Below, one piece after another: positions 51,300 through 51,650 of a stretch of 64,000 nt of DNA. How positions within the stretch are numbered: the first letter of the stretch is position 1; the number at the start of each line of letters is the position of its first letter. Made by a program: the position numbers and the translations under genes. The notes beneath the pieces were generated by a model. It worked only from the letters and a program-made list of their open reading frames with translations. It was not told the origin of the DNA and searched no databases. Source of the DNA: a virus (lineage: Duplodnaviria; Heunggongvirae; Uroviricota; Caudoviricetes); the IMG/VR virus record IMGVR_UViG_2778260994_000001. One strand, written 5' to 3'.

Positions 51300-51483
51300 A
51301 ATGGCAGCCTCCTTTTGCTAATTTAAGGAGCTACCGCGTGAGGTTCCAATCTCAATGGCGGTAGCACTGACTGGGTTGGAACTACCGGCGCAAAAGGGAA
51401 CCGGCCTGCCTTTCGGCAGCCCAGCCAGCACTACCATTGATCTCGGAGCTATGTGCTACGTATGGCTGTGCGATGGCATGACA

Positions 51484-51508
51484 CAAAAAAAGACGCTTTT
51501 GGCGTCTG
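51484..51508 (-). terminator. Intrinsic terminator (minus-strand sense)
   Basis: Minus strand AGACGC-caaaa-GCGTCT followed by TTTTTTT. Confidence 0.5.
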
Positions 51509-51600
51509 TGTCGCCTTTTGCATTATCCGGGGTTCCAATCCCGGCATCCGTTTTACTAAGATGCCTGTTTAGGATAAACCGAAAATGCATTAGCACGCAA
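51484..51600 (-). ncRNA. c4: Candidate c4-like antisense regulatory RNA
   Basis: Stem-loop CCGGG-AUUGGAAC-CCCGG then intrinsic terminator; loop sequence has complementary GUUCCAAC / GGUUCC sites in the downstream icd leader (51370-51410). Confidence 0.4.
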
Positions 51601-51633
51601 GCAAGTTAATGTAGCATATGAAGCTAAAAAAAT

Positions 51634-51650
51634 AAAATAATTAGAGCAAC
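51634..51650 (-). promoter_or_regulatory. C1-operator-like 17-mer (GTTGCTCTAATTATTTT, 14/17) at the head of the immI-type operon
   Basis: Minus-strand match upstream of the c4-like RNA. Confidence 0.45.

Follow-up and report, generated by a model that had tools for sequence, protein, structure and literature searches.

In phage P1, antirepressor synthesis is under the control of the antisense RNA c4, which RNase P cuts from its precursor at a stem that resembles a tRNA and is followed by CCA; icd that is left untranslated also gives premature (Rho-dependent) termination of transcription. According to the accounts in PMC12197685 and PMC8198154, which cite Citron & Schuster 1990, c4 pairs around the ribosome-binding site and thereby blocks ant synthesis, and this is the basis of the heteroimmunity of P1 and P7; that the c4 precursor is a substrate of RNase P in both phages is attributed to Hartmann 1995 (cited in PMC4919922). 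The annotation of P1 lists the order Oc4, promoters, a1, b1, c4, a2, b2, icd and ant1, with b2 described in GenBank as repressing icd/ant translation and with a1 and b1 labelled 'putative'. An IsrK-C4 immunity system is common to P4, P1, P7 and N15, and the P4 elements seqA and CI have their structural homologues in IsrK and C4 (Barquist 2013, PMC3632133). In Salmonella, IsrK is an expressed short Hfq-binding sRNA; in Gifsy-1 it activates antirepressor translation in trans more than 100-fold, and its pairing has been probed with isrK G28A and G31A and the designed partners orf45 C162U and C159U (PMC4825925).

The window analysed here, a stretch of 64,000 nucleotides from a virus of the Caudoviricetes, is by its sequence a P1-like phage-plasmid. 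We are confident that the locus described below is its immI-type immunity module, built on an 'IsrK-C4' RNA backbone of the D6/RCS47 type, with the immunity function assigned by homology. The gene order is that of the P1 annotation, with a C1 operator-like site upstream and with icd and ant homologues, whose stop and start codons overlap, downstream (Table 1); the elements follow the order operator, leader, icd and ant, and antirepressor synthesis appears to be under antisense-RNA control of the P1 c4 type. The allele is an ordinary specificity allele of a known system, as yet uncharacterised, and the pairing of IsrK with C4 is itself already published. PLSDB gives 662 hits, and at least 80% of the 1-kb locus is covered by 49 public plasmids, with identities of 98.8-99.5% among the matches listed. 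By megablast, icd and ant are approximately 95% identical to P1 at the nucleotide level and the leader is of the D6 type. The mosaic junction is found at about 51272 within icd: from this position downward the identity is 95% to P1 and 96.5% to P7, the first approximately nine icd codons are D6-like, and upstream of it the megablast matches are D6, RCS47 and JL22, with no match of the leader and c4 to any P1 or P7 record.

Table 1. Features of the immI-type locus (positions in the 64-kb window)
Feature	Position	Strand	Basis and remarks
Upstream promoter candidate TTTACA-17-AATTAT	51637..51665	-	consensus scan only, 9/12; P1 P2c4/P51a-like position
C1 repressor operator-like site GTTGCTCTAATTATTTT	51634..51650	-	14/17 matches to P1 consensus ATTGCTCTAATAAATTT; counterpart of P1 Oc4/Op51
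Conserved promoter candidate, -35 TTGCGT (51600-51595), 18-nt spacer, -10 TATCCT (51576-51571)	51571..51600	-	P1 P1c4/P51b-like position
IsrK-type leader element	51486..51564	-	Rfam isrK RF01394, 58.5 bits (cutoff 50), positions 1-77 of 77
Hairpin 2, CCGGG-AUUGGAAC-CCCGG	51527..51544	-	predicted fold
a1 site UUGGAAC, loop of hairpin 2 (first GAUUGGAAC loop)	51532..51538	-	exact complement of c4 a'; co-varies with a'
b1 site GCAAAAGG, single-stranded linker before terminator	51514..51521	-	exact 8-nt complement of c4 loop b'
Intrinsic terminator AGACGCCAAAAGCGUCU + U-run	51485..51507	-	terminator scan; ends predicted short IsrK-like RNA
c4 antisense RNA gene (Rfam span)	51354..51441	-	C4 RF01695, 76.7 bits (cutoff 45), positions 1-87 of 87
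b' recognition sequence CCUUUUGC, loop of c4 hairpin 2	51390..51397	-	complementary to b1, b2; mean P(unpaired) 0.87
a' recognition sequence GUUCCAA, single-stranded joining segment of c4	51376..51382	-	complementary to a1, a2; P(unpaired) 1.0
Second hairpin GCUACCGC/GCGGUAGC, GAUUGGAAC in loop	about 51330..51365	-	predicted fold
a2 target site UUGGAAC, small hairpin loop	51343..51349	-	complement of a'; co-varies with a'; counterpart of P1 a2
b2 target site GCAAAAGG	51311..51318	-	complement of b'; co-varies with b'; overlaps icd SD
icd Shine-Dalgarno AAGGAGG	51308..51314	-	8 nt before GTG start
icd homologue, 73 aa, GTG start	51078..51299	-	NCBIfam phage_ICD_like NF033153, 52.8 bits
ant1-like antirepressor gene, 345 aa	50044..51081	-	Pfam ANT/KilAC PF03374, 107.6 bits; matches P1 ant1

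The C4 match falls between the two hairpins that carry GAUUGGAAC in their loops. The RNA folds into a long closing stem enclosing two hairpins (MFE -46.6 kcal/mol), the same shape as the consensus fold of 36 homologues, among them P1, P7 and the window itself, in which 16 of the 27 pairs show compensatory changes on both sides (RNAalifold). The position of a' on the joining strand and of b' in the hairpin-2 loop is that found in P1 and P7; they occupy the places of CUGUCAA and UCACUAAC in P1 (CUGCUAA and UCACAAUC in P7). Relative to P1 and P7, the window has 2 extra nt in hairpin 1 and 1 extra nt in the b' loop. CCA stands after the closing stem (GCUACCG-CCA), the context expected of a tRNA-like substrate, and a mature c4 of 79 nt (approximately 51435-51357) is predicted, with ends transferred by alignment from the annotated 77-nt c4 of P1. 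Because a MAFFT alignment joining P1/P7 c4 to the sequences of the window, D6 and RCS47 left the P1/P7 hairpins out of register, the Rfam models and a regular expression for the c4 core were used in place of a covariance model of our own.

Upstream of c4 and on the same strand, the isrK-type element folds as three hairpins, consisting of hairpin 1 (51564-51544), hairpin 2, a linker and the terminator, whose stem begins 6 nt after the end of b1. C4 follows 44 nt downstream of the isrK match, with the a1/b1 complementarity between the two. The same arrangement, with isrK 24-62 nt directly upstream of C4, is seen with Rfam in all 11 related loci of this architecture, whereas the three loci with C4 only that were run against Rfam (L006, L024 and L044) show neither an isrK match nor nearby downstream sites. 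The element is the counterpart of the P1 a1/b1 region and of P4 seqA. The c4-a1b1 model (RF03163), which P1 and P7 pass with 51.0 and 55.5 bits, remains below its cutoff here (18.1 versus 46.7 bits, E 0.2; 51577-51524, in register with hairpin 2); the upstream element thus appears to do the job of a1/b1 but is of the isrK sequence type. We do not present the equation of IsrK with a1/b1 as a new insight, as the IsrK-C4 system is already contained in Barquist 2013 (PMC3632133). The terminator is included in the full-length isrK match both here and in all 11 related loci. With its threshold of -6 kcal/mol, our own terminator detector missed the 5-bp D6-type stem and hence scored no more than 13 of 30 representatives; the conservation of the terminator therefore rests on the isrK model matches and the terminator scan. 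Because IsrK, its homologue in Gifsy-1, is an expressed RNA (PMC4825925), a short terminated RNA reaching from approximately 51564 to 51485 is plausible; its role would be that of a c4 partner or antagonist and not that of c4.

This assignment reverses part of the preliminary description of the locus. The antisense-RNA control of antirepressor synthesis proposed there is indeed that of P1 immI, with c4 controlling icd and ant, but the roles of RNA and target had been exchanged. The operator-like site, the CCGGG-loop-CCCGG stem-loop, the intrinsic terminator behind it, the second hairpin with the repeated loop sequence and the GTG-start icd-like ORF with its AGGAGG ribosome-binding site are all present on the minus strand, as had been described. 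The stretch taken for a c4-type RNA (51484-51600), however, is the isrK-type element with its target-like sites. Both GAUUGGAAC loops exist, not as antisense loops but as the predicted binding sites of c4 (a1 and a2), and the leader site GUUCCAAC is complementary to both of them through GUUCCAA, yet this is c4's own strand a' and not a target. Part of a second proposed pairing site, GGUUCC (51402-51397), belongs to the stem of c4 hairpin 2, and the complementarity of this site is coincidental, because it is invariant in relatives whose a1 and a2 differ. The c4 fold at 51441-51354 and the b'/b1/b2 complementarity, including b2 on the icd ribosome-binding site, had been missed. The comparison with P1 c4 and its targets agrees in order, fold and positions of the sites, whereas the recognition sequences differ and c4 is located elsewhere than had been proposed.

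We consider it extremely improbable that 51484-51600 is nevertheless a c4-like repressor whose GAUUGGAAC loop pairs with GUUCCAAC or GGUUCC in the icd leader and switches ant off. With its own conserved promoter candidate, three hairpins and a terminator the stretch looks like a stand-alone sRNA, its complementarity to the downstream GUUCCAA is true, and its Salmonella homologue is the expressed, Hfq-binding IsrK (PMC4825925). However, it is matched by isrK and C4 is matched elsewhere, GUUCCAA, over 75 nt away from the icd start, is part of the c4 fold and not of a ribosome-binding site, GGUUCC does not co-vary, and the homologous upstream sites of P1 are annotated as C4 targets. In addition, the effect of the short RNA of Gifsy-1 on antirepressor translation is activation, not repression (PMC4825925).

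The elements with their folds, complementarities and co-variation are direct observations. The sets a'/a1/a2 and b'/b1/b2 are exact complements over 7 and 8 nt, respectively, and runs of at least 7 nt exactly complementary to c4 number six compared to 0.84 expected, a value reached in none of 300 shuffles. Exact GATTGGAAC has only two copies in the 64 kb, both at this locus; with one mismatch allowed, the motif is not above chance in the window (12 observed versus 16.9 expected), and an enrichment of the motif itself was thus rejected, only the complementarity to c4 being significant. In relatives the complementary sites are kept through compensatory change, so that the conservation check proposed in the preliminary description favours the system. 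Among 30 allele combinations from 79 unique phage-contig loci, complementary runs of at least 7 nt between c4 and its own flanks were found in 90% for a1, 63% for a2, 83% for b1 and 57% for b2, compared to 0.6% (a1), 0.7% (a2), 7.1% (b1) and 3.6% (b2) with foreign flanks. Self-matching sets of sites are present in each of P1, P7, D6, JL22 and RCS47, and the leaders of the window, D6, RCS47 and the related locus L012 show differences almost nowhere but at the six sites, and these change together; b1, for example, follows b' and reads GUCAAAGG in RCS47 and L012. Since a1 and b1 co-vary with a' and b' at least as tightly as a2 and b2 do, their pairing with c4 is under selection, and this tight three-way co-variation with c4 speaks for a function of the upstream sites.

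The co-variation also bears on the 39-aa 'Ash family' ORF at about 51437-51318, which overlaps c4. That a functional protein is made here instead of an RNA seems to us highly improbable, even though the ORF is annotated by PGAP in identical plasmids (CDS WFV79074.1 in CP099272.1), matches Pfam Phage_ASH (PF10554, 33 bits, cutoff 26) and uses the frame that, from a conserved AUG, stays open longest across loci (median 66 codons versus 31 and 17), and even though in Gifsy-1 an orf45-SPA fusion was detected and orf45 translation is needed for translation of anrP (PMC4825925). The length of the ORF varies from 14 to more than 67 aa across loci, the P1 frame stopping after 14 codons (by eye), there is no NCBIfam match, and the stems show compensatory changes of the RNA type (RNAalifold). 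The peptide varies exactly at a' and b', and these changes are compensated at non-coding sites up- and downstream, a pattern that a protein cannot explain. The Gifsy-1 counterpart, too, is conserved in its nucleotides and variable in its amino acids (PMC4825925). Two further ORFs, one of 84 aa on the plus strand antisense to c4 (51355-51609) and one of 95 aa at 51556-51843, have no Pfam match and were treated as non-genes, and an RT-6 match at 50573-50624 (21.8 bits, cutoff 46.7) was dismissed as chance.

The window contains 10 C1-operator-like sites compared to 0.29 expected, and the one at this locus is placed relative to the c4 leader as Oc4 is in P1. In the leader alignment such an operator is found upstream of c4 in RCS47 but not in D6, L012 or L030. 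The -10 of the upstream promoter candidate overlaps the operator, a layout that resembles the P1 annotation; it is a weak promoter candidate. For the conserved candidate, TTGC and TA...T are invariant in the five aligned leaders even where the flanks have diverged, and its predicted start at approximately 51564 is where the isrK model has its position 1; its hexamers are weak (-35 3/6, -10 4/6) and were not detected by a strict consensus scan. Downstream of c4, a2 begins 7 nt beyond the predicted 3' end of the RNA. The 5' arm of the hairpin at 51330-51364 is the 3' strand of the closing stem of c4, so that this hairpin and the c4 fold are mutually exclusive. In the predicted fold, CUCCUU (51330-51325) is a further pairing partner, in cis, of the icd Shine-Dalgarno sequence. 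The ATG of ant overlaps the icd stop codon (ATGA, 51081-51078), as expected for translational coupling of ant to icd.

Expression, processing and repression, as well as the role and direction of a1/b1, are what we infer from the homologues. Transcription of the minus strand would start at about 51564, probably from the TTGCGT/TATCCT promoter downstream of the C1 operator, with a second possible promoter overlapped by the operator. The transcript would first fold into the IsrK-like three-hairpin element (51564-51485), which ends at the intrinsic terminator and would display a1 in a loop and b1 in the linker; read-through would lead into c4, the a2/b2 leader, icd and ant. c4 would then be excised from the precursor, as by RNase P in P1, and the mature RNA would expose a' and b' for pairing with a2 and b2. 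As the icd Shine-Dalgarno sequence lies partly within b2, we propose that icd is not translated when c4 pairs; with ant coupled to icd translation, no antirepressor would be made and C1 repression, and thus lysogeny, would be kept. The a'/b' pair would set the specificity of immunity. As the leader is without megablast similarity to P1 and P7, Rho-dependent termination in icd and cleavage by RNase P may not transfer exactly. Since a1 and b1 would bind the same surfaces of c4, most likely the IsrK-like RNA or the leader in cis competes for c4, c4 feeds back on the terminator, or both.

The precedents for the role of a1/b1 are opposite in direction, termination in P4 and activation in Gifsy-1. 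The window shares with Gifsy-1 the succession of a short terminated three-hairpin RNA, a c4-like RNA (processed, about 80 nt, STnc1160 in Gifsy-1) and an antirepressor, as predicted in the window, and in Gifsy-1 it is through its middle hairpin that IsrK pairs with the downstream element (PMC4825925). In contrast to the window, where icd lies in between, the c4-like stretch of Gifsy-1 is read as orf45 and coupled directly to anrP, and the output is AntQ-mediated antitermination and growth arrest; control in the window includes the P1 C1 operator. With P4 it shares, by prediction, a processed antisense RNA (CI RNA, seqB) flanked on both sides by complementary sites (seqA and seqC) on the same transcript, but CI acts mainly via premature transcription termination of the replication operon, whereas the target in the window is, by homology to P1, the icd/ant ribosome-binding site.

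One tentative possibility is that the terminated IsrK-like RNA titrates c4 via a1/b1 as a decoy, which would free a2 and b2 and turn icd and ant on, with a threshold set by the ratio of termination to read-through and by C1 control of transcription. The tight co-variation of a1/b1 and the conservation of the terminator across all isrK matches are consistent with such a decoy, as is the finding that IsrK, which is complementary to the processed STnc1160, the c4 counterpart, raises anrP translation 114- to 171-fold in trans (PMC4825925). However, the Gifsy-1 authors attribute activation to refolding of the mRNA and not to titration of free antisense RNA, constitutive orf45/STnc1160 did not counteract IsrK (PMC4825925), and the P4 seqA-like element is needed for establishing immunity, which is the opposite direction (PMC3632133). 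Alternatively, but in our view somewhat unlikely, c4 might bind nascent a1/b1 as in P4 and favour the terminator, limiting read-through into c4, icd and ant; this would amount to autoregulation and a second lock on ant. Here the short distance between b1 and the terminator stem fits, and in silico the pairing probability of the terminator rises from 0.62-0.70 to 1.0 when a1 and b1 are blocked. In P4, transcription termination is governed by the pairing of CI RNA with seqA and seqC (Sabbattini 1995 and Briani 2001, as cited in PMC3632133 and PMC4825925), and the Gifsy-1 authors suggest the same for STnc1160 (PMC4825925). The predicted effect is small, however, and comes from thermodynamic folding only, and the competing structure is made of invariant bases and hence without support from co-variation.

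Compared with P1 and P7, the window has the same order of sites and the same icd stop/ant start overlap, icd and ant at 95-96.5% nucleotide identity and b2 on the icd ribosome-binding site, but it differs in its leader and c4, in the GTG start of icd and in an upstream element that passes isrK instead of the P1-derived c4-a1b1 model. Between the starts of isrK and icd, its leader is nearly base-for-base the same as that of D6, RCS47 and JL22 (82-88% identity when longer spans are compared), with the same isrK and C4 matches in Rfam, and RCS47 also has the upstream C1 operator. In contrast to all three, a1/a'/a2 differ by 2 nt (UUGGAAC in the window versus UUGAGAC; the a' allele of D6 is GUCUCAA), whereas b1/b'/b2 equal those of D6 and JL22 and differ from RCS47, whose b' allele is CCUUUGAC. 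D6 differs further in lacking the C1 operator and in having another ant; in the window the cassette is joined to P1-type icd and ant. The a module of the window is shared with L012. For two a alleles and two b alleles all four combinations exist, with all six sites matched in each. We suggest, with reserve, that immunity might be coded by combinations of the a and b modules, reassorted among P1- and D6-like phage-plasmids that are otherwise nearly identical, with the IsrK-like RNA as an active third player.

The practical value of these findings is modest, and they are mostly a correction: the stretch with the strongest resemblance to an sRNA, complete with a promoter candidate and a terminator of its own, is the upstream pairing partner of c4 and not the repressor, and c4 itself is unannotated in near-identical plasmids, where it appears in PGAP as an "ash family protein" CDS. 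The a' and b' sequences predict immI heteroimmunity among P1-like phage-plasmids, and the set in the window differs from those of P1, P7, D6 and RCS47; this prediction bears on co-residence and superinfection of phage-plasmids, some of which (RCS47 among them) carry resistance genes. The co-variation of a1/b1 also makes the old question of their role directly testable. If the suggested code holds, the IsrK-like RNA would be a c4-titrating decoy or a c4-sensing terminator, the immI decision would be made by a circuit of three RNAs, and the a1/b1 sites of P1, still 'putative' in its annotation, would gain a defined function.

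A scan of the whole window with Rfam at curated thresholds, repeated locally, yielded a full-length match to C4 (RF01695; 76.7 bits, with 45 as the gathering score) at 51441-51354 (-) and a match to isrK (RF01394; 58.5 bits against 50) at 51564-51486 (-). These placements put the predicted true c4 RNA between the two GAUUGGAAC hairpins of the preliminary description. All features listed there are present on the minus strand according to sequence reading and scans (see table), and antisense control of the P1 c4 type holds as a system, but RNA and target had been swapped: the small RNA proposed at 51484-51600 is an isrK-type element instead. 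Of the two downstream ORFs, that of 73 aa is homologous to Icd (NCBIfam phage_ICD_like, 52.8 bits), and that of 345 aa contains an ANT/KilAC antirepressor domain. Among 36 homologues, 16 of the 27 consensus pairs of the c4 fold show compensatory changes on both sides, which supports the fold independently.

Features of the c4 locus in 5' to 3' order of the minus strand
Feature	Position	Strand	Remark
C1-operator-like 17-mer GTTGCTCTAATTATTTT	51650-51634	-	14/17 positions match P1 operator consensus
AT-rich stretch after operator		-	weak promoter candidates (promoter scan)
First hairpin	51564-51544	-	
Stem-loop CCGGG-AUUGGAAC-CCCGG	51544-51527	-	first stem-loop of preliminary description; followed by linker
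a1 UUGGAAC	51538-51532	-	exact complement of c4 a'
b1 GCAAAAGG	51521-51514	-	exact complement of c4 b'
Intrinsic terminator AGACGCCAAAAGCGUCU with U-run	51507-51485	-	terminator scan
Spacer, terminator to c4 stretch		-	~45 nt
GC-rich, strongly structured stretch	51441-51354	-	
'ash family protein' CDS	51437-51318	-	39 aa; PGAP, WFV79074.1 in CP099272.1; c4 strand
b' CCUUUUGC	51397-51390	-	position homologous to P1 b'
a' GUUCCAA	51382-51376	-	position homologous to P1 a'
Second copy of GAUUGGAAC	51351-43	-	
a2 UUGGAAC	51349-51343	-	exact complement of c4 a'
b2 GCAAAAGG	51318-51311	-	exact complement of c4 b'; overlaps icd Shine-Dalgarno
Shine-Dalgarno AAGGAGG	51314-51308	-	
GTG-start ORF, 73 codons	51299-51078	-	stop overlaps ATG of next ORF
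345-codon ORF	51081-50044	-	

In the folded mature c4, the recognition sequences a' and b' are predicted to be unpaired with probabilities of 1.0 and 0.87. In P1 c4, a' (CUGUCAA) is part of the single-stranded joining segment and b' (UCACUAAC) lies within the hairpin 2 loop; both window sequences occupy the homologous positions. When c4 was searched exhaustively against its flanks for exact complements, six runs of at least 7 nt were found, compared with 0.84 expected; 300 shuffles never gave as many. Besides the four target sites (a1 and b1 upstream of c4, a2 and b2 downstream), the two further runs both involve the closing stem of c4 through its 3' strand, and one forms the hairpin at 51365-51330 noted previously. 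The site order (5' to 3'), b' before a' in c4 but a before b in both targets, fits an antiparallel two-site interaction. According to the predicted fold, a1 and a2 are each displayed in a hairpin loop, a small one for a2, and b1 falls in a linker; the icd Shine-Dalgarno is predicted to pair with an upstream CUCCUU, with the variable part of b2 in the loop of that hairpin. The icd-leader targets named in the preliminary description need revision: b2, the key site at the ribosome-binding site, had been missed, and GGUUCC is invariant where a1 and a2 vary, so that its complementarity is coincidental.

Co-variation was assessed with a degenerate c4-core pattern, which recovered 120 loci from IMG/VR; the 79 unique loci whose closing stem is intact represent 30 distinct (a', b') combinations of 14 a' and 25 b' alleles. 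Scored by how often a complementary run reached at least 7 nt, own flanks far exceeded flanks of other-allele loci for a' to a1 (90% versus 0.6%), a' to a2 (63% versus 0.7%), b' to b1 (83% versus 7.1%) and b' to b2 (57% versus 3.6%), and the distances of the sites are fixed across these loci. When aligned, the leaders of the window, the phage-plasmids D6 and RCS47 and locus L012 are almost base-for-base the same outside the six sites; the a sites change in concert (UUGGAAC/GUUCCAA to UUGAGAC/GUCUCAA), and the b sites change independently of them (GCAAAAGG/CCUUUUGC to GUCAAAGG/CCUUUGAC). All four combinations of these alleles occur in IMG/VR (L005-L124; 15, 12, 6 and 5 hits, e.g. L020, L003, L012 and L004), the pair of the window being the commonest in this sample with 15, and each has matching a1, a2, b1 and b2. 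This suggests that a and b are two specificity modules which reassort independently. Site sets are likewise self-consistent in each of P1, P7, D6, JL22 and RCS47. A C4-only subgroup (L006, L024, L044, L062, L095, L110) has complementary sites ~64-66 and 48-51 nt upstream and none within ~120 nt downstream; Rfam matched C4 but not isrK in L006, L024 and L044, and these loci may be P4-CI-like or of another architecture. In phage D6 (L003), another C4-like match, below threshold at 40.2 bits (cutoff 45), lies at 1074-1153 (+), ~550 nt upstream of the main c4.

In P1 and P7, the c4-a1b1 model (RF03163) matches the a1/b1 region and isrK lies sub-threshold at the same place; in the window this is reversed, with c4-a1b1 reaching just 18.1 bits, in register. 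Nearby a2/b2 sites are present in 11 of 14 representative loci; each of these 11 also has an isrK match on the C4 strand, 24-62 nt upstream of C4, and isrK and c4-a1b1 overlap in two of them. IsrK and a1/b1 are therefore one leader element under two descriptions. A conserved promoter (TTGCnn-N17/18-TAnnnT in the leader alignment) lies just 5' of this element, its predicted start at ~51564 being isrK model position 1. Positions 1-7 of c4-a1b1 (the 5' unpaired part, CUAguCU) align with the -10 box TATCCT of this promoter at 51571-51577 (-), and the model thus seems to include promoter DNA 5' of the transcript start. The link of isrK to a1/b1 is not new: IsrK and C4 have been described as structural homologues of P4 seqA and CI RNA, under the term 'IsrK-C4 immunity system', with similar systems noted for P1, P7 and N15 (Barquist et al. 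2013, PMC3632133).

Against Pfam Phage_ASH, the PGAP-annotated ash CDS scores 33 bits, above the cutoff of 26. The CDS is an in-frame reading of c4 and corresponds to Gifsy-1 orf45, which is conserved in nucleotide but not in protein sequence (Hershko-Shalev et al. 2016, PMC4825925). Its length varies across loci from 14 to more than 67 codons (14 in the P1 counterpart frame, read by eye), and the residues that vary coincide with the a'/b' positions, where changes are compensated in non-coding DNA. An unprocessed precursor may be translated across this ORF; we consider the CDS to be, at least for the most part, an artefact that comes from translating an RNA gene, and Phage_ASH may partly be made of translated c4/CI RNA genes.

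The window itself, judged by similarity, derives from a P1-like phage-plasmid. In PLSDB, 49 plasmids have one match over at least 80% of a 1-kb query, and identity among the matches listed is 98.8-99.5% (e.g. IncY plasmid CP099272.1). From 51272 towards lower coordinates, icd and ant show 95-96.5% identity to P1 and P7; in contrast, megablast aligned leader and c4 to D6 (88%), JL22 (84%) and RCS47 (82%) but not to P1 or P7. The module is thus a mosaic of a D6/RCS47-type RNA cassette and P1-type icd/ant behind a P1-type C1 operator. The junction at ~51272 falls inside icd at about codon 9, leaving the first icd codons on the D6/RCS47-like side, and the RNA cassette seems to travel together with its targets as a single unit. 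The GenBank annotation of P1 lists Oc4, two promoters, a1, b1, c4 (77 nt), a2, b2, icd and ant1/2; the locus is a specificity allele of this well-known, already catalogued RNA immunity system, and one common in sequenced E. coli phage-plasmids. A consensus scan found 10 C1-operator-like sites in the window against 0.29 expected by chance. The nine further sites include 49949-49965 (-), 17507-17572 and 31719-31746, the last an overlapping inverted pair with one perfect consensus site; one precedes the KilA-N/ANT gene (49879-49079), the P1 Op53/kilA position. Some 1.2 kb beyond the kilA-like gene, a match to the sok antitoxin RNA of Rfam (hok/sok type; 91.4 bits, cutoff 59) at 47721-47895 (-) marks a plasmid-addiction module. 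P1-like phages encode tRNA genes, in agreement with the three at 28992-29064, 30911-30983 and 30989-31061 (-) (64.7-74.5 bits).

Parts, folds, complementarities and co-variation are established here; excision, repression and immI (immunity operon) specificity of c4 we infer from P1 and P7. Rho-dependent termination and icd-ant coupling were reportedly described by Biere et al. in 1992 and Riedel et al. in 1993. Following the P1/P7 mechanism, as far as summarised from Citron & Schuster 1990 (PMC12197685, PMC8198154) and cited from Hartmann 1995 (PMC4919922), c4 would be transcribed together with its target and cut out to ~51435-51357, its 5' end produced by RNase P; CCA directly follows the closing stem. 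Pairing of a'/b' with a2/b2 would occlude the icd ribosome-binding site and, because ant relies on icd translation (ATGA overlap), block antirepressor synthesis, so that C1 repression would be kept. With immI specificity presumably set by a'/b', no cross-reaction of the window allele with P1 or P7 would be expected; its overlap with D6 and JL22 is limited to b, and that with L012-type elements to a.

For a1/b1, a candidate role is that of a decoy on a short IsrK-like RNA. The precedent is Gifsy-1, where the terminator is the end of short IsrK, isrK-orf45-anrP arises by read-through, STnc1160 (~80 nt) is processed out of 'orf45', orf45 pairs with the middle of IsrK (probed by G28A/C162U and G31A/C159U) and IsrK in trans raises antirepressor translation >100-fold (Hershko-Shalev et al. 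2016, PMC4825925). Alternatively, c4 might promote termination at the adjoining terminator, which has a precedent in P4; in line with this, blocking a1 and b1 in silico raised terminator pairing from 0.62-0.70 to 1.0. A cis effect on folding of the precursor is a third candidate. Mild novelty is confined to the modular reassortment of the a and b specificities and to the strong selection on a1/b1, which makes the function of these sites testable.
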